Source: Candidatus Zixiibacteriota bacterium (lineage in GTDB: Bacteria; Zixibacteria; MSB-5A5; GN15; FEB-12). From it: DNA of 48,121 bases. The first letter of the stretch is position 1. Each line of letters opens with the position of its first letter. Below, in pieces: positions 1-48,121 of this stretch. The translations under genes were made by a program, and so were the position numbers. Location: contig JBGSIV010000077.1 of NCBI GenBank assembly GCA_041742355.1, positions 1 through 48,121 on the forward strand, written 5' to 3'. The notes under the pieces were generated by a model, which was not told the origin of the DNA, ran no database searches, and saw nothing but the letters and a program-made list of their open reading frames with translations.

Positions 1-2754
<2,754 letters not shown>

Positions 2755-2853
2755 AAAAGCCTTACCTAAGAGCATCCATTTGTCACCTTACGTGACACAG
2801 CCAATTGGAAGATACGTTTTTTCCGTATCAACCCGGGTCGTCAAATCTATGAA

Positions 2854-2866
2854 GTTGTCAAAGAGC
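2854..2866 (-). promoter_or_regulatory. boxA antitermination site in the 16S-23S spacer
   Basis: Minus strand TGCTCTTTGACAAC, matching the rrn boxA consensus, between tRNA-Ala and 23S. Confidence 0.8.
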
Positions 2867-2924
2867 AGGTTGCCCTGGAGGGCAACTTATCTAATACAAA
2901 ACAAGAATTCGTAAGTTCCAAAAT

Positions 2925-2997
2925 TGGAGATGACCGGGATCGAACCGGCGACCTGTGGCTTGCAAAGCCACCGCTCTCCCAACTGAGCTACATCCCC
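2925..2997 (-). tRNA. tRNA-Ala(TGC)
   Basis: GGGGATGTAGCTCAGTTGGGAGAGCG-GTGGC-TTTGCAA-GCCAC-AGGTCGCCGGTTCGATCCCGGTCATCTCCA folds as a cloverleaf with anticodon TGC. CCA is not encoded. Confidence 0.97.
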
Positions 2998-3022
2998 GAA
3001 ACCAAAACCGTTTTTTTCACAC

Positions 3023-3096
3023 TGGGCCTAGATGGAGTTGAACCATCGACCTCGCGCTTATCAGGCGCGCGCTCTAACCAACTGAGCTATAGGCCC
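3023..3096 (-). tRNA. tRNA-Ile(GAT)
   Basis: GGGCCTATAGCTCAGTTGGTTAGAGCG-CGCGC-CTGATAA-GCGCG-AGGTCGATGGTTCAACTCCATCTAGGCCCA, anticodon GAT. CCA is not encoded. Confidence 0.97.
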
Positions 3097-3236
3097 GTTA
3101 AGCTCGTTTACGCGCCTGATGGCGACGTTGTTTTATCACGTAAATAGTCATCGGGAAGTCCAGGAGGGGTAGACGGCGTGCCGGTCGACCTTGGAACGGC
3201 ACCGCGCTTGCGCGCGACGCTCGCACCATTCTCCTT

Positions 3237-4789
<1,553 letters not shown>

Positions 4790-37404: not shown

Positions 37405-37470
37405 CTGAATGAAGACTTGGAGTTAACCGGCCGCTTCCGTGGCCCGACAGCTGCTGACACCCGGAACGAT

Positions 37471-39201
37471 ATGGAAAAGAAGAAAATTGGCGACCTCCTC
37501 CTGGAGAAGGGTTACCTCACCGTTGGCCAACTCGACGATGCCCTGAAGGAACAAGCGCTTAGCGGCCGACGTCTCGGGGAAATTCTCGTGGAACGGAAGC
37601 TCATCACCGAAGAGCAGTTGGTGGGCGTTGTCTCGGAGCGTTTGGCCATTCCCAAAATCTCCCTGGAGTCCATGGTCATCGACCCCGATGTCATCCGCAG
37701 AGTGCCGGTGAGTGTCGCGCGCCGCTACACGCTCATCCCCATTTTCGAGATCGGCAATACGCTCACGCTGGCAATGGCCGACCCGCTCAATATCATCGCC
37801 ATCGATGAAATCAAGTACGTCACCGGAAAAACCATCAAGCGGGCAATTGCTACTCCAAGCGAGATTCGTGCGGCGATCGACGATTGCTACTCGGTTGCGG
37901 ATTCTCTGAACATGATCATCGGCTCGCGCAGCGGGGAAGATCCCGCGCGCCCTGACTTCGCCCAGCAGAAGGGGGACGAAGAGTCCGAGAGTGCCGTCGT
38001 CAAGATGGTCAATATGATGATCCAGCGGGCCGCAAAAGACCGGGCCTCGGACATTCACATCGAGCCGGAAGAGAACCGGCTGCGGATCCGTTACCGCATC
38101 GACGGCTCCATGCGGGAGGAGGCGGCCCCGCCGAAATCGATGCAGAACGAGTTGATTTCACGCGTCAAGATCGCCGCCAATCTCGATGTTTCGGAGAAGC
38201 GGCTGCCGCAAGATGGCCGGTTCACGATGAATGTCGACGGTGGCAACGTCGATCTGCGCATCTCCACGCTGCCGACCATCCACGGCGAGAAGATCGTTAT
38301 ACGTTTGCTGGACCGCCGCAATTTGCTCCTGACGTTTCAGCAGCTCGGCTTTCCTTCAGTGCTTGAAACGGCCTGGAAGAGCGTCATTCACAAACCTGAG
38401 GGGCTCATTCTGATTTCGGGGCCGACTTCCAGCGGCAAAACTTCGACCCTGTACGCCACGCTGCACGAGATCAACTCGGTCGAAAAGAACATTGTCACGG
38501 TGGAAGACCCGGTTGAGTACTCCTTGCCCTTAATCATCCAGATTCAGATCAATGAGAAGGCCGGGCTGACCTTCCCCGTCTGCCTTCGCGCGATTTTGCG
38601 GCAGAACCCCGATGTCATCATGATCGGCGAAATCCGCGACCCGGAGACGGCGCGCATGGCTATCCGGTCGGCCCTGACCGGACATACGGTCTTTTCGACC
38701 ATTCACACCAATGATGCCCCCTCTGCGATAGCCCGTCTCGTCGACATGGACATCGAGCGCTACCTCGTGGGTACCGCCCTCAAAGGAGTCCTGGCGCAGC
38801 GGCTGGTGCGGGTGAACTGCCCCGAGTGTTCTTCCGTCTACCGTCCCTCTGAGAGCCTCTTGCTCCGGTCCGGCCTGATCGACCGCGCCTCCGAGTTCAC
38901 CTTCAGGAAGGGCACGGGCTGCCCCAAGTGCAAGAACTCGGGCTTCAGGGGCCTCACCGGCATCTACGAGTACGCTGAAGTGACGCCGTATGTTACGGAG
39001 ATGATCATGCGCAATGCGTCGCTCGGCCAGATCAAAGAAGCCATTCGCAAGAACGGCTATGTCCCCTTGTTCGAAGCCGGGCTTGAGCGGGTGCGAGACG
39101 GTTCGGTGTGCCTCGAGGAGCTATTGAAAGAGACTTCCAACGTCGAAGACTACCTCATGCCGGAAGAAGCGGCTGTGATGCGAGCGATCCATGCAGAGTA
39201 G
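37471..39201 (+). CDS. pilB: PilB/GspE/MshE family assembly ATPase with an N-terminal MshEN domain
   Basis: 'KIGDLLLEKG..L..AL.EQ', 'RLGEILVE', 'ASDIHIEP', 'EKRLPQDGR', Walker A 'GPTSSGKTSTL', 'TVEDPVEY', 'LRQNPDVIMIGEIRD', 'TGHTVFSTIHTND', and Zn-binding CxxC pairs. Confidence 0.95.
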   Translation: MEKKKIGDLLLEKGYLTVGQLDDALKEQALSGRRLGEILVERKLITEEQLVGVVSERLAIPKISLESMVIDPDVIRRVPVSVARRYTLIPIFEIGNTLTLAMADPLNIIAIDEIKYVTGKTIKRAIATPSEIRAAIDDCYSVADSLNMIIGSRSGEDPARPDFAQQKGDEESESAVVKMVNMMIQRAAKDRASDIHIEPEENRLRIRYRIDGSMREEAAPPKSMQNELISRVKIAANLDVSEKRLPQDGRFTMNVDGGNVDLRISTLPTIHGEKIVIRLLDRRNLLLTFQQLGFPSVLETAWKSVIHKPEGLILISGPTSSGKTSTLYATLHEINSVEKNIVTVEDPVEYSLPLIIQIQINEKAGLTFPVCLRAILRQNPDVIMIGEIRDPETARMAIRSALTGHTVFSTIHTNDAPSAIARLVDMDIERYLVGTALKGVLAQRLVRVNCPECSSVYRPSESLLLRSGLIDRASEFTFRKGTGCPKCKNSGFRGLTGIYEYAEVTPYVTEMIMRNASLGQIKEAIRKNGYVPLFEAGLERVRDGSVCLEELLKETSNVEDYLMPEEAAVMRAIHAE

Positions 39202-40405
39202 GTTCAAATACCGGGCCGCAGCCGGCGACGGCGAAACTAAGACCGGGGTTCTCCTGGCCGACAGCCCCGATCAGGTGCTGGAATATCTCACCGAGCAGGA
39301 GCTCGTCCCAATAGCTGTCGAACCAGCTCCTCCGCGCAGGGGCTTCTCCCTTCTCGGATTTCTCCGCAGCGGCAACTACGAGCGACTGATTACGTTTACC
39401 GCGAACCTGACCACAATGTACCGCGCGGGTATTCCGATTCTCCGCGCCCTCACCCTCATCAAGATTGGCCCGGCCAACGGCCGTTTCGACAGGGCGATTA
39501 ACGACATCCGGCTCGCCGTCCAGTCGGGGAGATCGCTCTCGTCGGCTATGGAAGCGCATGACGATCTCTTTTCCCGCGTCTATGTCGCCAGCATTGCGGC
39601 TGGAGAGGAATCGGGGCAGTTGGACGATATTTTGACCGAACTTCGCACGATGCTGGAGGACGAATTGGAGCTGACCCGCGCGATCAAGTCGGGCGTCCGA
39701 TATCCGATAATGGTCATCTCGGCACTCGCCGCCGCAGCCGCAGTCATTCTCTTCTACGTCGTTCCAAAGTTCACTGACTTCTACAATCAGTTCAATGCCG
39801 AACTCCCCCTGCCCACCCGTATGCTGATCGGACTTCAGGGGGCGCTCGCCAAGTACTGGCCTGCCCTGTTGATTGGGGGAGTTCTCTGCGGATTTCTGGC
39901 CAACCGCCTGATATCCAATGAGCGGGGCAAGATCTGGCTGGACCGCCAGTTTCTCCGCCTGCCGGTGTTCGGCAACCTGATCATCAAGGGAAATATCGCC
40001 CGATTCTCCATGATGTTCCATATCCTGTTCAGGTCGGGACTTCCAATAATCGCCTGCCTGGATATACTCGCCGATGCGGTCAAGAATAGCGCCATTGCCG
40101 GAGAAATCCGACAAATGGGCAATCTCTTCCGCGAAGGACGCGACAGCCGTTTGGCCGAGCACGAGTTCAGGTACTTTCCGCCGCTGGCCCTTCAGATGAT
40201 GACAATCGGCCTGGAATCCGGTTCGCTGGCCGAGATCCTCAAAGAGGTATCCACCCACTACGCAAAGGAGGTGCAGTACACCTCCCGTCAACTGACCGCC
40301 ATCCTCGAGCCGATTCTCACGCTGGTGATGGGCATATTCGTCCTGATTCTGGCGCTGGCTATCTTCCTGCCGATGTGGAACTTGATCAAAGTATTTAACG
40401 GGTAG
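39191..40405 (+). CDS. pilC: PilC/GspF/MshG inner-membrane platform protein
   Basis: 'F..NL.TM.RAGIP', 'G.SLS.AM', 'AAGEESGQLD', 'YPIMV', 'VVPKF..FY', 'LPLPTR.L', 'LEPILTL', 'AIFLPMW'. Confidence 0.95.
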   Translation: MQSRFKYRAAAGDGETKTGVLLADSPDQVLEYLTEQELVPIAVEPAPPRRGFSLLGFLRSGNYERLITFTANLTTMYRAGIPILRALTLIKIGPANGRFDRAINDIRLAVQSGRSLSSAMEAHDDLFSRVYVASIAAGEESGQLDDILTELRTMLEDELELTRAIKSGVRYPIMVISALAAAAAVILFYVVPKFTDFYNQFNAELPLPTRMLIGLQGALAKYWPALLIGGVLCGFLANRLISNERGKIWLDRQFLRLPVFGNLIIKGNIARFSMMFHILFRSGLPIIACLDILADAVKNSAIAGEIRQMGNLFREGRDSRLAEHEFRYFPPLALQMMTIGLESGSLAEILKEVSTHYAKEVQYTSRQLTAILEPILTLVMGIFVLILALAIFLPMWNLIKVFNG

Positions 40406-40410
40406 CCCCC

Positions 40411-40438
40411 TAAAACCCGGGGCAGAACACGCCGATAG
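40411..40438 (+). promoter_or_regulatory. sigma28-like promoter upstream of the major pilin
   Basis: TAAA-N16-GCCGATAG in the only sizeable intergenic gap of the operon, ~50 nt before a strong SD (AGGAGG). Confidence 0.55.
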
Positions 40439-40490
40439 AAGACATAACGGTAATTCTTTCCAATGTATGTGCTCTCAGGAGGATAGACTC

Positions 40491-40916
40491 ATGGCCCCAA
40501 TGCACAACGAACGTGGTTTCACGCTCATCGAACTCGTGATCATTATTGTGATCCTCGGCATTCTTGCCGCTGTCGCCATTCCGAAGTATCAGGATCTCTC
40601 AGGCGAGGCCCGTGAGGCTTCGGCCCGCAGCTCTCTGGGATCGATGCGCTCGGCGATCACTATCTTCTACGCAAACCAGGCCGTCCAGACTGGCGCGGCT
40701 ACCTGGCCCTCGCTGGTCGAATTGCGCACCCCCGGCACGGTGATGGCGCAAAGCATCCCGCCGAATCCTTACCAGAGCAGCGTTCCTGATTCGGTTGTCG
40801 ACGGCACGGGCCAGGCACGCGGCACGGTGATCGGCGCAGCGGGGGGTTGGGTATACAACCCGACGACCGGCGAACTCTGGGCGAACACTGACGATGCCGA
40901 CGAGAATGAGTGGTAA
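40491..40916 (+). CDS. Type IV pilin / MshA-like major pilin
   Basis: Class III signal 'NERG|FTLIELVIIIVILGILAAVAIPKY'. SD AGGAGG at 40477. Confidence 0.92.
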   Translation: MAPMHNERGFTLIELVIIIVILGILAAVAIPKYQDLSGEAREASARSSLGSMRSAITIFYANQAVQTGAATWPSLVELRTPGTVMAQSIPPNPYQSSVPDSVVDGTGQARGTVIGAAGGWVYNPTTGELWANTDDADENEW

Positions 40917-41370
40917 GCCCACGCCGGCGTCCCGACTCGGAGCATCCGGGTTCACGCTGGTCGAACTGGTCATCATCATCGTGATCCTCGGGATTCTCGC
41001 CGCCGTGGCAATTCCGAAGTTTGGCGACATGAGTGAGTCATCCAAGGACGTCGCCACCCGAAAAGAGATGAACGAATTGCGGCGAGCCATCGTGGGCTCG
41101 CCCGATGCGGTGGCCGGAGGACGCCTGGTCAACGCGGGGTTCGAAGGAGATGTGGGACATCTTCCGACCCGCCTGGAAGACTTGGTCACCCGGCCGGACT
41201 CCATTGTGCCATACGATCGCCTTACCCGGCTCGGCTGGAACGGTCCGTACATCGACGGAACCGGCGGCAGCTTTCTTGCGGATGCATGGGGGACGCCTTA
41301 CCAGTACGACCCGGGCCTGCGGCAGTTGCAGTCGGTCGGGGGAAATGACACCATTTCTGTAACGCTCTGA
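40906..41370 (+). CDS. Type IV pilin / GspG-like pseudopilin
   Basis: 'ASG|FTLVELVIIIVILGILAAVAIPKF', GspG-like 'DVGHLPTRLEDLV..P', 'WNGPYI', 'DAWGTPYQY'. Confidence 0.9.
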   Translation: MSGKPTPASRLGASGFTLVELVIIIVILGILAAVAIPKFGDMSESSKDVATRKEMNELRRAIVGSPDAVAGGRLVNAGFEGDVGHLPTRLEDLVTRPDSIVPYDRLTRLGWNGPYIDGTGGSFLADAWGTPYQYDPGLRQLQSVGGNDTISVTL

Positions 41371-41378
41371 TACCAACT

Positions 41379-42980
41379 ATGTTCACCGCGATAAAGAACA
41401 GACTCACACGGCCGAAGGGGGCAACGGGCGCTTCGGCACAGACTGCTGTACACGAGACCGCGCTGACGCCACAAAGCCGGCTGCTCATCGGTCATACGAT
41501 TGGTGTGTACGTGACATCGGAGAGCATCTACTTCGCCGCGGTCCGCCACCTCGGTCGACGCCGGACGGTTACGGCCGCGGAAGCTGTTCAACTCCCGCTT
41601 GGTCTATCGCCCGATGAACACGCCGCCCAGGTTGCTCAGGAGGCGGGGCGATTTTTCGACCTTCATGGGGGCCGAAGCACACGCGTTACCGTCTGCGTCT
41701 CCGGTCAGGGGACCGCCTTTCGCATGTTCATGCTGCCCGCGCTTCGCCGCGGCGATCTCCAGGCCGCCGTGCGAATTGAGGCGGCAAAGCAGGTGCCCTT
41801 TCCTCAAGCCGACTGCTACTATGGATTCGCCCCGATCGCCAGAGTGAGCAGCGGCGGCCAGAGCCGCGTGAAGATCGCCTTGCACGCAGTGACCAGAAGT
41901 CTGATAAACCAATCGCTGATGCCGCTGACCAAAGCGTCGTTGCCCGTGCAGGCCATCCACGCCGCTCCCACGGTTTTGGGGCAACTCCTCTCTGAACTGC
42001 CCGAATTCTCTGTCAACCGCAGCTACGCCGTGCTGCGCATCGGGCACCATGATACCGAAACCTCCTTCTATCGCGGCGGGACACTGGAGTTCTTCCACCA
42101 CGGTGGAACCGGGGCATCCATGCTTGGCGACCATCCTGAAGAGGCCCACATAGAGTACTTCGCCGAAACCCTCGCCACCGAAATTCAGACGTCGTTCGAT
42201 TACTATGCGGGCCAACACGCGGTTCAGAATGCGCAGGAAGTCTACGTGTACGGCGAAGCCGCCTCTCTTCCCCGGCTTCTGGAGCTGCTCTCGGAACGGG
42301 CCGGTTACCGGTTTGCGGCATTCCCGGCCGATCAAATCAGAGCCATGGCCCTTGGGCGAGGGGTTGACCGAGAGGTGGTGGTCGAAGCGCTCCCGGCTGT
42401 CGCCACCGCACTTTGCCATGCGGAAATCCCCAACCTTCTCCCGCCTGAACGGGTGGAATACTGGCGCCGCAGACGAATCGACATGATCGGACGGACTGCT
42501 GTTGCCGCGGCATTCCTTGTATTGGCCGGAAGCTGGGGTTTCCTCAACCGGGATCTGCAGGTGCACGACGGAACCGTGGCGGCCCTTGAACGCCAGCTCG
42601 CCATGTTCCAGTCGTCAGAAGCTTTCCATACCTTCAACACGCTCAAAACGAGGGTCGCCGCATCCAGCAAGTACCTTCGGGAAACGGCCAAGGAGTCAAC
42701 CTGGCTCGCACTCAATCTCAAAGAGCTGTCGCTGCTTACTCCCGCTGAGATTCGGTTGACGCGTTATGAGCTCAACACCGCCGAGCCGTCGCAAAATCTC
42801 CGAATTCAGGGAATCTCACAGTCGGAACAAGTCCCTCCTGAAGTGGCCGTTGCCGAGTTTGTCGAGCGACTCAGGACGAGCGGTTTTTTTGAGAACGTTG
42901 AAGTGGAGCGCCACGTCAAGCGTCGTATCGATGGCGAGGCGCAAATCGATTTCCAGCTGCTTATGCGGGGGATACTGTGA
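41379..42980 (+). CDS. pilM: PilM-like cytoplasmic domain fused to a PilN-like TM/periplasmic domain
   Basis: Actin-like PilM motifs 'IGVYV', 'EAAKQVPFP', 'LATEIQTSFDYY', 'VYVYGE', then 'IPNLLP', a TM, a coiled coil and PilN-like 'L.ELS.LTP.EI.LT', 'F.ERL..SGFFENV'. Confidence 0.8.
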   Translation: MFTAIKNRLTRPKGATGASAQTAVHETALTPQSRLLIGHTIGVYVTSESIYFAAVRHLGRRRTVTAAEAVQLPLGLSPDEHAAQVAQEAGRFFDLHGGRSTRVTVCVSGQGTAFRMFMLPALRRGDLQAAVRIEAAKQVPFPQADCYYGFAPIARVSSGGQSRVKIALHAVTRSLINQSLMPLTKASLPVQAIHAAPTVLGQLLSELPEFSVNRSYAVLRIGHHDTETSFYRGGTLEFFHHGGTGASMLGDHPEEAHIEYFAETLATEIQTSFDYYAGQHAVQNAQEVYVYGEAASLPRLLELLSERAGYRFAAFPADQIRAMALGRGVDREVVVEALPAVATALCHAEIPNLLPPERVEYWRRRRIDMIGRTAVAAAFLVLAGSWGFLNRDLQVHDGTVAALERQLAMFQSSEAFHTFNTLKTRVAASSKYLRETAKESTWLALNLKELSLLTPAEIRLTRYELNTAEPSQNLRIQGISQSEQVPPEVAVAEFVERLRTSGFFENVEVERHVKRRIDGEAQIDFQLLMRGIL

Positions 42981-43537
42981 ACCGACGTCTTCTCATGTAC
43001 GGCGGAACGATCGCGGCAATGGTCGTCCTCTGGGGCTACCTCGTTTGGATCCCTCATGCCCGGAAGACGCAAGCTGCGGACCGCCTGGCGGAAGAGACGC
43101 GACGGCAGCTGGCCGAGGCCCAGCAGTTCACCCTCCAGTTGCCCGCATTCATGGACACTCAGGAGCGCTTGCAGGCGCAGCGGATTGACTTGAATTCCCG
43201 GCTGTACGCAGCTGCCGACATCATGGCGCTCCTGCGCGAACTGCGCGATCAGGCGGCCGAGTTGAACCTCCGAGTGATCGAGATAACGCCGTCAATCGAC
43301 GAACTCCTCCGCCTCAACCAGGCTCTGACCAGGAGTTCCGAGCCGCAGTACCTCAATATCGAGATCCTCCTCTCGGGCGAATTTGTCTCGCTCGGTGAAT
43401 TTGTGCGGCACATCGAACACGAGGAATACACCCGGGGGATCAACCGGTGCATCATGAGCGGCGCGCGGGACGGGTCGGAGCCACTGCAGATGCAATTCGG
43501 ATTCAGGGCCCTGTTGGGAACCGGAGGCAGCGTATGA
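42977..43537 (+). CDS. pilO: PilO/GspM-like protein
   Basis: N-terminal TM, coiled coil, 'LNIEILLSGEFVSLGEFVRHIE'. Position after pilM/N. Confidence 0.78.
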   Translation: MNRRLLMYGGTIAAMVVLWGYLVWIPHARKTQAADRLAEETRRQLAEAQQFTLQLPAFMDTQERLQAQRIDLNSRLYAAADIMALLRELRDQAAELNLRVIEITPSIDELLRLNQALTRSSEPQYLNIEILLSGEFVSLGEFVRHIEHEEYTRGINRCIMSGARDGSEPLQMQFGFRALLGTGGSV

Positions 43538-43986
43538 ATGCGGCAACGCGCCGACGCGGACTCTATGTGCTTCTCGGCCTGGCCATTGTCTGGGGCATGT
43601 ACAATATGAACGCCCCGCGCAACTCAAAGCCGAAGTCGGATGCTGTCCCAGCCGCGACAGCCTCTGCCCCACAGGTGAAGGCGTCGGCGAGGCAGGCAAA
43701 CCTGGCCGACTACGAGGCGAAGCCGTGGGGCCGCGACCCCTTCCGCACGCAGTCGCACCGGAACGGGAGTGCTCAGATGCCCTCCGCAAATAGGCCAGCC
43801 CAGGCCGCCTGGAGACTTTCCGGCATTGTCTACAGCGAAGGGACCCCGCTTGCGATAGTGAACAATCGCCCGGTTCGCGTCGGCGACCACATCAATGGCG
43901 CCACTGTCATGGACATAAACAGACGGGAGGTGACCCTCGATGCCGGCGGAAGCCGTGTCACTCTCCGGGTCACACCCAAAGGATAA
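43534..43986 (+). CDS. PilP/GspB/MshK-like protein
   Basis: TM, 'WGRDPF', 'LSGIVYS....AIVN...VRVGD.I.G..V..I....V.L'. The ATG overlaps the pilO stop. Confidence 0.75.
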   Translation: MNAATRRRGLYVLLGLAIVWGMYNMNAPRNSKPKSDAVPAATASAPQVKASARQANLADYEAKPWGRDPFRTQSHRNGSAQMPSANRPAQAAWRLSGIVYSEGTPLAIVNNRPVRVGDHINGATVMDINRREVTLDAGGSRVTLRVTPKG

Positions 43987-43989
43987 CGT

Positions 43990-45285
43990 ATGAAACCGCG
44001 CACTGCAGCTCTGGTCATCCTCGGCTTGTGTATTCTGGCTGCCTCGCCCAGGGCCTCCTCCCCACTGGACAACGCCCGGCCGCTGTCCCTCAATCTTGAA
44101 AATGTGCCGATTACGACTGTCCTGGACATGGTCGCGGCGCAGAACGGGTTGAACATTGTCGTTTCCGGCACCGTCGTCGGGTCGGTGACTCTGCGTCTGG
44201 AAGATGTGGCGCTCCCGGCGGCCCTCGATGCGATCCTCCTCCCGATGGGTTTCAACTATTACATTCGGAACGGTGTGATTGTCGTGAAGCCGTTCGAGAT
44301 GTATTCCCCGGGCGAGCTTGAAACCCGGAGCGTGGAGCTGCGGTACATCGACCCCGTGACCGTGCAGAAAGCGCTGAGTCCCCTGAAATCGACGCAGGGG
44401 CAGGTGATCATCCTGGACAAGATAGCCGGCGCCGAGGGGGGCACAGTCAGTCCTCGCGAGACCTACAAGCCGAATCGGCTTCTGCTGGCCGACTTCCCGG
44501 CGGTTGTGGCGCAGATGCTCGAAGTAATTGCGGACATCGACCAACCGGAGCAGGTCATCTCCATTGAAGCCCGCATTATCGAGACGAATGTCGATGACGC
44601 CAGCCGCGTGGGATTCTCGTGGCCAACCGCTTTCGGCACGGTATTGGGCGGCGGCGGCACCGACTCAGGCAGCACGGGCGGCTCGGACGAAGTCGACGGT
44701 GCCGCGGTGTGGAATCCCAACAACGGCGATTTTGCGTGGGCCAAACTCACGGTTCAGCAGGTCAACCTGGTTCTTCACCTGCTTGAGGAGAAAGGCGACA
44801 GCAAGTTGATCTCGGACCCACGGGTGACGACTCTGGCCAACCACGAGGCGGAAATCAAGATTCAGACGGTCATACCGATCGCCACGATCAACCGGTTCAC
44901 CGAGGGGGCGGCGACGCAGGATATCGTGACTTTTCAGGATCAGGAGGTCGGGATCTCGTTGCGCGTTACGCCGAGGATAAATGAAGCGGGCAGGATCACG
45001 ATGGATGTCATGCCGGTAGTCGAGGACATCATCGGCTTCGCCGGACCCGCCGACAACCAGAAGCCGATCACGACCGAACGGTCGGTTCGCACGACTATCA
45101 CGGTCGCCGACGGCGAGACGGTCGCTTTGGGCGGGTTGCGCAAGGAGGACGAAATCGAGAGCGTCCGGCGCGTGCCGCTCCTCGGTCACATACCGCTTCT
45201 CGGGAGGCTGCTCTTCACCAATACCTCAAAGGAGAAGAAAGCAACCGACCTGATTATCCTGATAACGCCACGCGTCCTTCCCTGA
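43990..45285 (+). CDS. pilQ: Secretin (PilQ/GspD/MshL family)
   Basis: Signal peptide, N0 'LSLNLENVPI..VL..VA...GLNIVV', 'Q.ISIEARIIE', 'LISDPRVTTLAN', 'VGISLRVTPRI', 'GETVALGGL', 'VPLLGHIPLLG.LF', 'LIILITPRV'. Confidence 0.93.
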   Translation: MKPRTAALVILGLCILAASPRASSPLDNARPLSLNLENVPITTVLDMVAAQNGLNIVVSGTVVGSVTLRLEDVALPAALDAILLPMGFNYYIRNGVIVVKPFEMYSPGELETRSVELRYIDPVTVQKALSPLKSTQGQVIILDKIAGAEGGTVSPRETYKPNRLLLADFPAVVAQMLEVIADIDQPEQVISIEARIIETNVDDASRVGFSWPTAFGTVLGGGGTDSGSTGGSDEVDGAAVWNPNNGDFAWAKLTVQQVNLVLHLLEEKGDSKLISDPRVTTLANHEAEIKIQTVIPIATINRFTEGAATQDIVTFQDQEVGISLRVTPRINEAGRITMDVMPVVEDIIGFAGPADNQKPITTERSVRTTITVADGETVALGGLRKEDEIESVRRVPLLGHIPLLGRLLFTNTSKEKKATDLIILITPRVLP

Positions 45286-46242: not shown

Positions 46243-46568
46243 GGGTGTCCGTGGGTTTAAGGGTTCGCACCTTTGGTCTGTTATACCAGTAGGCCTGCCA
46301 AAGGTTTAGCGAAAAGTGCCGGACCGGAGGAGGACTGTCCTGGTTGCTGTTTCTCAGGCCGAAAAAAGGTACCGGCGACGCTGGTGTCAACCAATATTCG
46401 CGGCAGGCCGTCATACCTCTCGTAGACGATCGGAGCGGGCCCGACATGACGGATTAAGTGAGGCGAGGGTAAAAATTGGCAACTGGACGGTAACTGGTAT
46501 GCCTGGACGATGGCGTCGGCGAGTACGGAACGTTAAAGTGTTGGTTGAGGGGATGTGTGGAACTCCAT

Positions 46569-46599
46569 AGAAACAGGGCCAGTCAGTAGACTGGCCCTG
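46569..46599 (-). terminator. Intrinsic terminator
   Basis: 11-bp stem CAGGGCCAGTC-TACT-GACTGGCCCTG followed by TTTCT on the minus strand. Confidence 0.7.
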
Positions 46600-47035
46600 A
46601 GTATTCGGTAGTTCGCAGTCGGGCGGCTCCACCAGGCAACCGCCGGGAAATCATATCTCGCTCAATGGGTTTGCTCGGCGCCGCGGACGTATCGGGACGA
46701 TACCAACATATAATGTCCGCGAAGAATTTGACCCACTACAGCCGAGAACTTGGTCGGTGACAGGACCTGCAGGCCGTAGGGGTGCCAGCAATCCTTTTCT
46801 CCCAGAGATGCGAACCCTTTGTCATCTTTGCTCTTCGGCATGAAGCAACTCCCTATCTGCTCGTGAAGTCTGATATCCCCCTCTTCGGTTTCTGGCACAT
46901 AGCTATAGATAACCGGGGATAGCGGTGAAGCTATAGGGATTGGTGGATTTCTGAGATATCACCTCCTAACGACTGCGACGCCCCTTGGCCATTACTACCT
47001 ATTCCGACCTCCAAAGGTGCTGACGGACTCAGCAA
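46569..47035 (-). ncRNA. Candidate large structured non-coding RNA (unassigned family)
   Basis: Multiple nested long-range complementary segments close a ~400-nt domain that ends directly at a terminator (detailed in findings). The 5' end is uncertain. Confidence 0.55.
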
Positions 47036-47074
47036 ACGTATCGCCCCTCACATAGTAGACTTTTGACATACAGG

Positions 47075-47389
47075 TCAGGTCAGCAGCATCCTGTGTAATT
47101 TTTTGATCGCACGGTGTTTATAAATATTCACCACCTGTTGGGTAACCCCTAACAGATCGGCTATCTCGCGCTCGGTCTTCCCTATCAAGTAGTACTTGAT
47201 TACTTCTTTTTGGCGCTTTGACAGGGAGTGATTTATGTGCCATTTGAGTTTGCCGCGAATCCTGTCGAGGTGTTGCCGGATGAGGCCATCGGATTCCTCC
47301 AGGTGATAGGGCGACTGCTCGTTGGCGAACGACTCGAGGAAGAGTCGGTCGACCGCCACTTCGGCAAAGTCGGACTCGCGCGCGGGCAC
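47075..47389 (-). CDS. Stand-alone sigma70 region-4-like HTH protein
   Basis: 'SLSKRQKEVIKYYLIGKTEREIADLLGVTQQVVNIYKHRAIKKL' fits the sigma region 4 HTH pattern. 104 aa with no region 2. SD-like AAAGGGG before the GTG. Confidence 0.85.
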   Translation of the reverse strand: MPARESDFAEVAVDRLFLESFANEQSPYHLEESDGLIRQHLDRIRGKLKWHINHSLSKRQKEVIKYYLIGKTEREIADLLGVTQQVVNIYKHRAIKKLHRMLLT

Positions 47390-47408
47390 ACGTTCCCCCT
47401 TTCCGGTA

Positions 47409-47966
47409 TCAGAACTCCAGCTTGTTCTCCGAGCGGATGCGGTTGAGGTCGGCGACGGAGATATTGAACTTCTTCGCCGTTTCCTCCCGGATTTCGTTGA
47501 CCGCCACAGTCAGTTCGTACGATGACAGGTCTTTCGGGAGACTGCGGTAACGCTGATTGTAGTACGCCAGGACCTGATCGTTGAGTGATTGCGTTTTGGC
47601 AGCGGTCGAGGCCGGAGCGGTGCCGGAGCCTGATTTGGGCTTGGCGGCGGCTTTGGCGGCCTTGAGCTGCTTTGTCATCTGGGCCAGCTGCAGTTGCAGG
47701 GTGTCGATTGTGCCCGACAGGGAGTCGACCGTGATCCGGTAGGTCTGATCGCGGCGCAGGAGGCTGTCACCGAAAGCCAACTCCTTGCCGGCCATCTGGT
47801 CACGGAGGGAGTCGGCTTCAAGCTGGGCAGCGTAGACCTCGCCAACCGAAGACTGGCGGCCGGCCTCAAAGGAGCCCGCGAGGCGATCCTGCTGGCGGAC
47901 AACCTGAAGGTAGCCAACAAGAACAACCACGGCGAGCAGGAATATGGCGAGCAGGGCTTTTTTCAT
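47409..47966 (-). CDS. Hypothetical membrane-anchored coiled-coil protein
   Basis: MKK plus N-terminal TM, heptad coiled coil, Ala/Lys/Ser linker, small C-terminal helical domain. Only 19 nt separate it from the sigma4 gene. Confidence 0.8.
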   Translation of the reverse strand: MKKALLAIFLLAVVVLVGYLQVVRQQDRLAGSFEAGRQSSVGEVYAAQLEADSLRDQMAGKELAFGDSLLRRDQTYRITVDSLSGTIDTLQLQLAQMTKQLKAAKAAAKPKSGSGTAPASTAAKTQSLNDQVLAYYNQRYRSLPKDLSSYELTVAVNEIREETAKKFNISVADLNRIRSENKLEF

Positions 47967-47993
47967 AATGATCCGTCAGTGAAGACTGGTCGC

Positions 47994-48022
47994 ACAATAT
48001 TGGGGCCGCGAAAGGGTGTCAA
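47994..48022 (-). promoter_or_regulatory. sigma70-like promoter for the membrane protein / sigma4 / RNA unit
   Basis: TTGACA-N17-TATTGT about 27 nt upstream of the ATG at 47966. Confidence 0.7.
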
Positions 48023-48070
48023 GTTTGAACTTTCCGGGGGGTTGGCCCCGGATTGGGTTCGTTTGATACT

Positions 48071-48092
48071 CGGCCGATGTGGACATCGGCCG
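48071..48092. repeat. 10-bp perfect inverted repeat
   Basis: CGGCCGATGT-gg-ACATCGGCCG. GTGGACATC recurs about 29 nt downstream. Confidence 0.75.
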
Positions 48093-48121
48093 CGCACATG
48101 TACGGCCGTGGACATCCGCAG

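Follow-up and report, generated by a model that had tools for sequence, protein, structure and literature searches.

Phage late-gene activators of the LtrA (Sigma70_r4) family, which belong to the RinA/ArpU/Ltr superfamily, are encoded just upstream of terS (PMC3753634). Two-subunit sigma factors are represented by SigO-RsoA of Bacillus subtilis and Sig7-8 of Tn916 (bioRxiv 10.64898/2026.10.01.756105; PMC8103513, PMC10141391, PMC7826278), and finding split or partial sigma factors has been noted as an open problem (PMC7826278). Here we present the analysis of a chromosomal locus in which the gene of a 104-aa protein with a helix-turn-helix (HTH) domain similar to sigma region 4 is followed by a short promoter motif and by the gene of a 59-aa basic protein. 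The locus lies on the minus strand of contig JBGSIV010000077.1 of a Candidatus Zixiibacteriota bacterium, and all coordinates are those of the whole 48,121-nt stretch of DNA that was analysed, hereafter the window.

Like LtrA as described (PMC3753634), the 104-aa protein is small, stands alone, shows limited similarity to sigma region 4 and is encoded directly upstream of what appears, from the co-loss of gene and promoter, to be its single target promoter. Unlike the LtrA genes, the HTH gene sits in the chromosome as a single copy and has spread vertically within Zixibacteria, and its presumed target is one small-protein mRNA, not the terS late operon. The small protein was not found in phages and the motif was not found in viral contigs, so the phage origin that characterises LtrA is not seen here. 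Judged by its published description, the LtrA class appears to be the closest working analogue of the 104-aa protein. With SigO-RsoA and Sig7-8 the locus shares a region-4-like protein without a sigma2 of its own, a two-block promoter that is not sigma70-like and a small adjacent gene; with Sig7-8 it also shares a second promoter block that resembles, by eye, the region upstream of orf7 (in Tn925). It differs from both in that no sigma2-like partner was detected, that the small gene outlives the HTH gene, and that the promoter stands behind the HTH gene without autoactivation, the motif preceding the operon in only 1 of 82 loci.

We propose, with a probability of roughly 0.7, that the locus is a two-stage switch in which the HTH protein acts as the activator that drives the structured mRNA of the small protein. 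A reading of this DNA from its letters alone (the sequence-only reading) had taken the region behind the HTH gene for a large structured RNA. That lead was false: the supposed large noncoding RNA is an mRNA that encodes the 59-aa protein (46841-46662). The correction brings to light a family of small proteins for which no family model exists and which occurs in every Zixibacteria genome searched, a possible marker of the phylum, whose gene is apparently highly expressed in these uncultured bacteria. The locus also offers a compact regulator-promoter pair, a 104-aa protein and a motif of ~30 bp, with natural loss-and-replacement controls. Such a pair could show whether a chromosomal region-4-only protein fires a promoter alone, needs a hidden sigma2 or redirects a host sigma factor.

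The supposed noncoding RNA is the mRNA of a small protein

The coding sequence emerges from a comparison of the 30 best loci, selected via relatives of the 104-aa protein (found in 48/60 relatives). Nucleotide similarity 3′ of the HTH gene is focused on one stretch, with matches in 25 of the 29 other loci, and this stretch is an ATG-started open reading frame (ORF) with a Shine-Dalgarno (SD) site, recognised by pattern in 29 of the 30 loci and by hand in the thirtieth. The majority base reaches a frequency of 0.72, 0.80 and 0.50 at codon positions 1, 2 and 3, and the mean proportion of nonsynonymous differences (pN) is 0.30 against 0.81 for synonymous ones (pS), with pN<pS in 406/406 pairs. 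Because the ORF is under purifying selection at the codon level, the transcript is an mRNA; the best-conserved part of what had been called a structured RNA is an overlooked gene. Its product (46662..46841) carries the family pattern KxxWHxYxLQxLxPxKFxxVVxxILxG; the ORF is kept in 30/30 loci, and its SD site, ATAGGGAG, recognised by pattern and in the consensus fold, lies at 46849..46856.

A profile of the small protein retrieves 236 representative clusters at 50% identity and matches 151/151 genomes of the phylum Zixibacteria, with 1-6 copies in each. The named homologues, among those seen, are all Zixibacteria hypothetical proteins, and no match was found in Pfam, NCBIfam, PDB sequences, ESM Atlas or phages. 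Literature on Zixibacteria sigma factors, small proteins and metatranscriptomes and on split sigma factors yielded no description among the papers listed, within a coverage that leaves out most subscription journals. The family thus appears to be undescribed.

An AlphaFold2 (AF2) model of the small protein, with a predicted local distance difference test (pLDDT) score of 73, places two helices, one short and one longer, between a pair of short strands; a fold-library search with this monomer model gave nothing usable (one row at Z=2.0), which is not proof of a new fold. In 162 proteins of the family the median isoelectric point is 9.9 and no membrane segment is seen, the highest 19-residue hydropathy being 1.3 and the median 0.67. 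At this hydropathy the product is not the hydrophobic membrane peptide expected of a type I toxin mRNA. Because the protein is basic and soluble it may bind nucleic acid, and at somewhat less than even odds we suggest an abundant protein of stress or stationary phase whose binding partner would be nucleic acid, the ribosome or RNA polymerase. A predicted complex of the 104-aa and 59-aa proteins scored 0.16 against a mark of 0.32 and, made without folded controls, is no evidence either way.

RNA data hint weakly at a transcript of its own for the small ORF. Part of positions 46500-48100 is contained in 21 RNA runs on record, and we compared metatranscriptome contigs, assembled, unstranded and from RNA runs only, for 4 of 24 listed runs from four studies. 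The contigs of the 4 runs all fall within 46596-47038, with the single exception of an unrelated partial match of 37 nt. Contig ends in three of the runs lie at 47034, 47034 and 47038 without a loose end; on the 3′ side the contigs extend as far as the terminator stem. The small-ORF region is the only properly assembled part of 3.6 kb in the four metatranscriptomes; the two upstream genes are uncovered, and this missing cover is not evidence of silence. A separate transcript probably starts between the HTH gene and the small ORF. We place a putative monocistronic structured transcript of ~470-480 nt at 46569..47046, with a 5′ end between 47038 and 47049, on the strength of the RNA contigs and of the lengths in relatives, where predicted transcripts have a median of 454 nt (77/97 loci with a called terminator). 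The intrinsic terminator (46569..46599, called at 46599-46574) is present as reported earlier. By itself it is not above chance, with 1 found against 3.0 in shuffles, and we accept it because relatives support it: compensatory changes occur at 8/10 pairs in 12 aligned RNAs, which were picked for similarity or good pairing.

The ~475-nt stretch folds modestly better than its shuffles (z -2.0; 4/100 as good), and no relevant match was found for it in Rfam at the gathering and E-value thresholds. Transfer-messenger RNA (tmRNA), RNase P RNA and signal recognition particle (SRP) RNA were ruled out as its identity, since the genes of all three lie elsewhere in the genome. RNAalifold on the 12 RNAs gives three sequence-invariant leader helices, and double-sided changes are confined to the terminator and to 4 weak pairs inside the ORF.

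In predicted folds the ribosome-binding site is sequestered: the SD site of the ORF is paired to the leader in 66/77 predicted RNAs, and in the window its predicted partner is the anti-SD arm ATCCCTAT (46933..46940). In a test of cognate versus swapped duplexes on 56 de-duplicated loci, whose permutation figures may be inflated by the relatedness of the loci, this anti-SD/SD arm was matched in 0/5000 permutations. A short arm, in which the segment after AGGAGGUG pairs with the first part of the 3′ untranslated region (UTR) next to the stop codon, was matched in 1/5000, three other arm pairs in 55, 267 and 1273/5000, and a control against the ORF interior was flat (4398/5000). The short arm is the only family-wide signal of pairing with the 3′ UTR. 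In this genome and its closest relatives the 3′ UTR (46607..46659) is predicted to pair with the leader at 46999-46953 in a long 5′/3′ rod; a family-wide rod was rejected, as the own partner is best in only 1/56 loci.

Further upstream the leader holds an orphan SD-like element without a start codon, AGGAGGTGAT (46953..46967), which in this genome is predicted to pair with the 3′ UTR. Its general form, AGGAGGTG(A/G)T, is complementary to the 3′ end of the window's 16S rRNA and occurs in 90/104 leaders, at a median of 111 nt before the ATG and with no start codon 4-11 nt after it in 96/103 leaders. The consensus fold of the 12 RNAs pairs it with an anti-SD-like arm, AGCACCTT (47014..47021), to which a CACCU-like match exists in only 38/103 leaders. 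Other families have leaders down to ~60-120 nt, and in some of them AGGAGG is the ORF's own SD; the HTH loci of families f8 and f18 have short leaders too, several of them with AGGAGG in that role.

The hbs gene encodes a small basic DNA-binding protein, and the 5′ exonuclease that a STAB-SD blocks is RNase J. The B. subtilis hbs mRNA combines a 5′ UTR of extensive structure with a strong SD and 5′/3′-UTR pairing (PMC5737220), features that recur here in a genome that likewise has RNase Y, together with CsrA. Unlike hbs as described, the message studied here encodes an unrelated protein, has a sequestered SD, carries an additional orphan SD and comes from a genome in which no RNase J was found. 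The STAB-SD of Bacillus thuringiensis cry3A is a strong SD without a start codon, ~125 nt upstream of the ATG (PMC12970973). The orphan SD resembles it as a strong, start-less SD far upstream in the 5′ UTR; unlike the STAB-SD of that account, it would by prediction spend much of its time in base pairs. That no RNase J was found is a further difference.

A promoter motif tied to the HTH gene

The 104-aa protein (47075..47389), our candidate for a dedicated activator, has its HTH at residues 54-98, in the C-terminal half, and a conserved N-terminal segment, ESFANE-x-S-x-Y. The Pfam profiles Sigma70_r4, Sigma70_r4_2 and GerE all match above their cut-offs, and GerE/LuxR (40.1 bits) scores higher than Sigma70_r4_2 (34.5). 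In the PDB the top matches, EvgA and a FixJ-type regulator, are both of the NarL/FixJ type, and by eye the HTH has one residue fewer than the sigma4 domains encoded in this genome. By these comparisons the protein appears to sit between sigma4 and LuxR/NarL HTH domains. Its earlier description as essentially a sigma region 4 is ambiguous, since GerE/LuxR scores higher although the region-4 profiles pass as well.

Directly past the stop codon of the HTH gene stands TGTATGT, invariant in 30/30 loci chosen by the HTH protein. The upstream block of the motif lies at 47063..47073, with its core at 47072-47066, 2 nt past the stop codon; the downstream block, CT-A-N-T-W-NN-T and a purine run, lies at 47044..47058 and is proposed to be the -10/start region. 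Over 103 loci the logo reads GTGTATGTCAA-N4-CT-A-N-T-W-NN-T followed by purines, and in 90 of them the motif lies 1-2 nt past the HTH stop. A matrix trained without this locus ranks the site first genome-wide, at 33.8 bits versus 20.3 for the next, and a position weight matrix (PWM) scan of the genome for a regulon of the motif found no comparable second site. The TACTAT hexamer at 47057-47052, which had been noticed before as -10-like, is indeed present inside the downstream block; it is not conserved as a sigma70 -10 box, with TAnnnT in 28/103 loci. A start near 47046-47049 would put the motif in the spacer, and one near 47037-47040 would put it at -35.

Motif and HTH gene are kept and lost together. 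Of the fetched loci, many came in via the ORF and 50 via the HTH itself. Among 111 loci that have both HTH gene and ORF, 105 carry the motif no more than 45 nt from the HTH stop; the six that lack it all have a decayed N-terminal segment of the HTH protein, and four of the six bear a TTG-17/18-TAnnnT site instead. In 51 ORF loci without the HTH gene the motif stands at the promoter position in none, and the two regex matches among them lie inside the leader, with none found 200-480 nt upstream. Where such HTH-less loci have an orthologous leader (17 flagged, less two paralogue rows), a sigma70 site of at least 9/12 is present in 10/15, versus 2/95 intact loci. Searching metagenomes for the motif alone gave 30 matches. 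Nine are unrelated and 21 fall where this HTH gene ends; 20 of the 21 have the ORF downstream, and the remaining one is cut off. The HTH gene, single-copy in 92/151 genomes and 7/19 families, is followed by the small ORF in 110/110 distinct matches, so that homologs of the 104-aa protein do share one downstream element, which the sequence-only reading had set as a check, though a protein-coding one.

Since the motif is lost with the HTH gene and a sigma70 promoter usually takes over, it is probable that the HTH protein activates the internal promoter. Activation of the promoter just behind the gene had been among the earlier suggestions, and co-loss and promoter replacement make it the best supported of them. 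The single transcription unit assumed at the same time is in doubt: between the HTH gene and the RNA stands a conserved motif of an internal promoter.

Two further observations concern the motif. In locus L051, where the HTH gene is gone and a sigma70-like promoter is present, GTGTATGGCAA lies ~340 nt upstream of the small ORF and may be a decayed relic of the motif. An antisense promoter, suggested by TTGACA in the reverse complement of the motif, was rejected: by eye no -10 follows it, the terminator is opposite, and the replacement promoters point forward.

The proposed switch and competing explanations

In the first stage of the proposed switch, a housekeeping sigma70-type promoter would transcribe the membrane-protein and HTH genes, as its consensus match and conservation suggest. 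In the second, the HTH protein would recognise TGTATGT behind its own stop codon, whereupon RNA polymerase would start the ~470-nt transcript, a step to which co-loss and promoter replacement point. The HTH protein would most likely be an LtrA-like stand-alone activator working with a host sigma factor. The transcript is the mRNA of the 59-aa basic protein, with its ribosome site predicted to fold into a conserved anti-SD helix. It would be a stable, translationally gated message, in which the second, start-less SD-like element ~110-125 nt upstream may serve as a ribosome standby or protection site. The small protein would be the output of the switch and not a subunit of the regulator.

Several points weigh against this proposal. 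The regulatory evidence is a correlation among kin, with about two independent losses of the HTH gene and few decays (on a poorly resolved quick tree with weak support), and the decayed HTH proteins retain a near-normal recognition helix. Depending on the start, the motif would lie either at -35, in the spacing of extracytoplasmic function (ECF) sigma factors, or at about -26 to -20, an odd site for an activator. There is no conserved sigma70 -35 to point to a partner sigma factor, and TAnnnT is infrequent. No terminator stands between the HTH gene and the RNA, so read-through is possible, and as assembled contigs the RNA data hint only weakly at a discrete, abundant transcript. The leader helices show no covariation in the 12 RNAs. 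A STAB-SD role for the orphan SD is weakened because RNase J was not found in the 93.8%-complete genome. The role suggested for the small protein comes from its basic and soluble character.

The alternative that survives best, though we consider it unlikely, is a split sigma factor: the 104-aa protein would dock on core RNA polymerase as a sigma3/4-type subunit, and melting of the -10 would fall to another subunit, of the sigma2 type, as in SigO-RsoA or Tn916 Sig7-8. That subunit would come from an unlinked gene or be the 59-aa protein itself in a positive-feedback loop. The region-4 profiles that pass their Pfam cut-offs fit this idea, and so does a promoter that is not sigma70-like, TGTATG-N16-TRRR having ECF-like spacing. 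The likeness by eye of the second motif block to the stretch upstream of Tn925 orf7 also agrees with it, as do RNA contig ends at 47034-47038, which fit a start ~35 nt behind the motif, and a KF..VV..I segment of the small protein that aligns, without significance, at the position of sigma2 region 2.3. However, no sigma2 similarity was detected by hhalign (0.7% for the small protein, 3.7% against Orf8, 0.6% for the membrane protein), and no HTH_16 gene lies above the cut-off in the genome. The small-protein family is present in 151/151 genomes and the HTH in 92, and the ORF persists after loss of the HTH gene. The shortened HTH, the NarL/FixJ-type PDB matches and the near-absence of the motif upstream of its own operon also speak against a sigma subunit. 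With no sigma2 partner found, a split sigma factor is unproven; a very divergent or unlinked partner is possible. We clearly favour the stand-alone activator. Less likely still, and speculative, is the idea that the 59-aa family is a phylum-wide RNA polymerase or ribosome factor with paralogues under three promoter systems (sigma54, sigma28-like and the one described here), and that at this locus it would form, together with its 104-aa partner, a minimal chromosomal split sigma factor of ~160 residues that amplifies its own abundant, ribosome-gated mRNA.

It is improbable that one of the host's ordinary ECF sigma factors reads the promoter and that the HTH protein is a repressor or an unrelated syntenic neighbour. 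The genome has 22 sigma2-containing ORFs that could supply such a factor, and the recognition helix retained by decayed HTH proteins although the motif is gone, together with the small number of independent losses, would suit it. Unlike an ECF regulon, however, the motif has no comparable second site in the genome by PWM; it was not found at the paralogue loci or after HTH loss, where a sigma70 site replaces it; and its position at 1-2 nt past the HTH stop in most loci ties it to that gene.

Very improbable, in our estimate, is that the RNA acts as RNA, whether as a 6S-like RNA, in a ribonucleoprotein with the HTH protein or as a sponge for CsrA or the 30S subunit, with the ORF secondary. It resembles 6S and Ms1 RNA, the YlxM-SRP pair and large ornate noncoding RNAs as an apparently abundant structured transcript beside a region-4-like gene; it differs from 6S/Ms1, OLE/ROOL-type and SRP RNAs in being protein-coding, without an Rfam match and without a family-wide fold. 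Its proper assembly in the four metatranscriptomes, the long rod in this genome, several GGA-rich tracts beside the presence of CsrA, and the failure to find 6S RNA (RF00013) in the window's genome (G000, 93.8% complete) would fit a functional RNA. Against it stand the strong purifying selection on the ORF, a leader/trailer rod that is not family-wide, and the short leaders of other families, some with AGGAGG as the ORF's own SD. The earlier idea of a ribonucleoprotein or an RNA-assisted sigma factor finds no support in an mRNA for a conserved small protein whose overall fold is not conserved.

There is a negligible probability that the 104-aa ORF is what a frameshift left of a full-length sigma factor: a GTG start in this genome and similarity to region 4 only would allow it, but the length is constant at 101-109 aa in 30 aligned orthologues, 593 relatives were found at E<=1e-8, with 120 listed of 103-112 aa and only 3 longer matches, and the gene upstream encodes an unrelated membrane protein.

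Neighbouring genes and paralogues

Along the minus strand the locus consists of a promoter, a 185-aa ORF (47409..47966), a 19-nt gap, the 104-aa ORF, ~475 nt and the terminator, and the promoter, both ORFs and the gap are present as the sequence-only reading had them. The sigma70-type promoter TTGACA-17-TATTGT (47994..48022) serves the two upstream genes, to judge by its consensus match. By itself it is not above chance (1 found vs 1.4 in shuffles); it is accepted because relatives support it, a sigma70-like site preceding the orthologous 185-aa gene in 52/82 loci.

The 185-aa ORF encodes a long-helix protein that is anchored in the membrane by its N terminus and ends in a conserved three-helix domain; its AF2 model (pLDDT 91) has one helix at 2-108 and further helices at 128-180. 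A Foldseek search gave nothing at E<=0.001 and only weak HTH/homeodomain-like rows, and ESM Atlas gave no match. The gene lies upstream of the HTH gene in 30/30 close loci, two of them by weak matches. It is kept at four loci from which the HTH gene is lost (L051, L126, L132 and L141), and in families f5, f8 and f18 its profile picks up no copy next to the HTH gene. A functional tie of the membrane protein to the other components, which had been put forward with less certainty, is not upheld, because the membrane and HTH genes are lost independently; we treat the protein as a syntenic neighbour within one order that is not required. At locus L047 the C-terminal three-helix domain is duplicated, and there the HTH protein and the motif are decayed.

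The window's genome (G000) holds two further copies of the small protein. One, ending in LIK (G000:C196:18484-18684, minus strand), belongs to a type whose loci are among L143-L180. In 19/22 loci such a LIK-ending paralogue is followed by an M23-type peptidase gene, recognised by its M23-type HxGxD motif. All 22 loci have a GG-N10-GC site (0.5 expected), and 17/22 have, in tandem with it, a CGATA site (2.3 expected); the patterns were written after the sequences had been inspected. We take the two sites to be sigma54-like and sigma28-like, respectively, by their consensus. If so, they suggest that the paralogue is a conditionally expressed output protein.

The third paralogue (G000:C221:1933-2103, plus strand) stands alone with its own hairpin, without HTH gene or motif, between a gene resembling that of an iron-sulfur repair di-iron protein and an rpiB-like gene (labels by eye). 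Elsewhere, at L183-L189 (families f8 and f18), a second, divergent paralogue lies inside the same 3-5 kb as the HTH locus, in some cases with a TTGACA promoter.

Beyond the locus, a rhodanese-domain gene and a MauE/DoxX gene follow on the minus strand (46242-45254), a pair that recurs behind the gene of the small protein at many loci of this order. Converging on the locus from the plus strand (37417-45285) is a type II secretion or type IV pilus-like cluster with an ATPase, a platform protein, pilins and a secretin, labelled by eye from their translations. At the far end of the window, positions 1-4789 on the minus strand hold an rRNA operon composed of 16S rRNA, tRNA-Ile, tRNA-Ala and a partial 23S rRNA.

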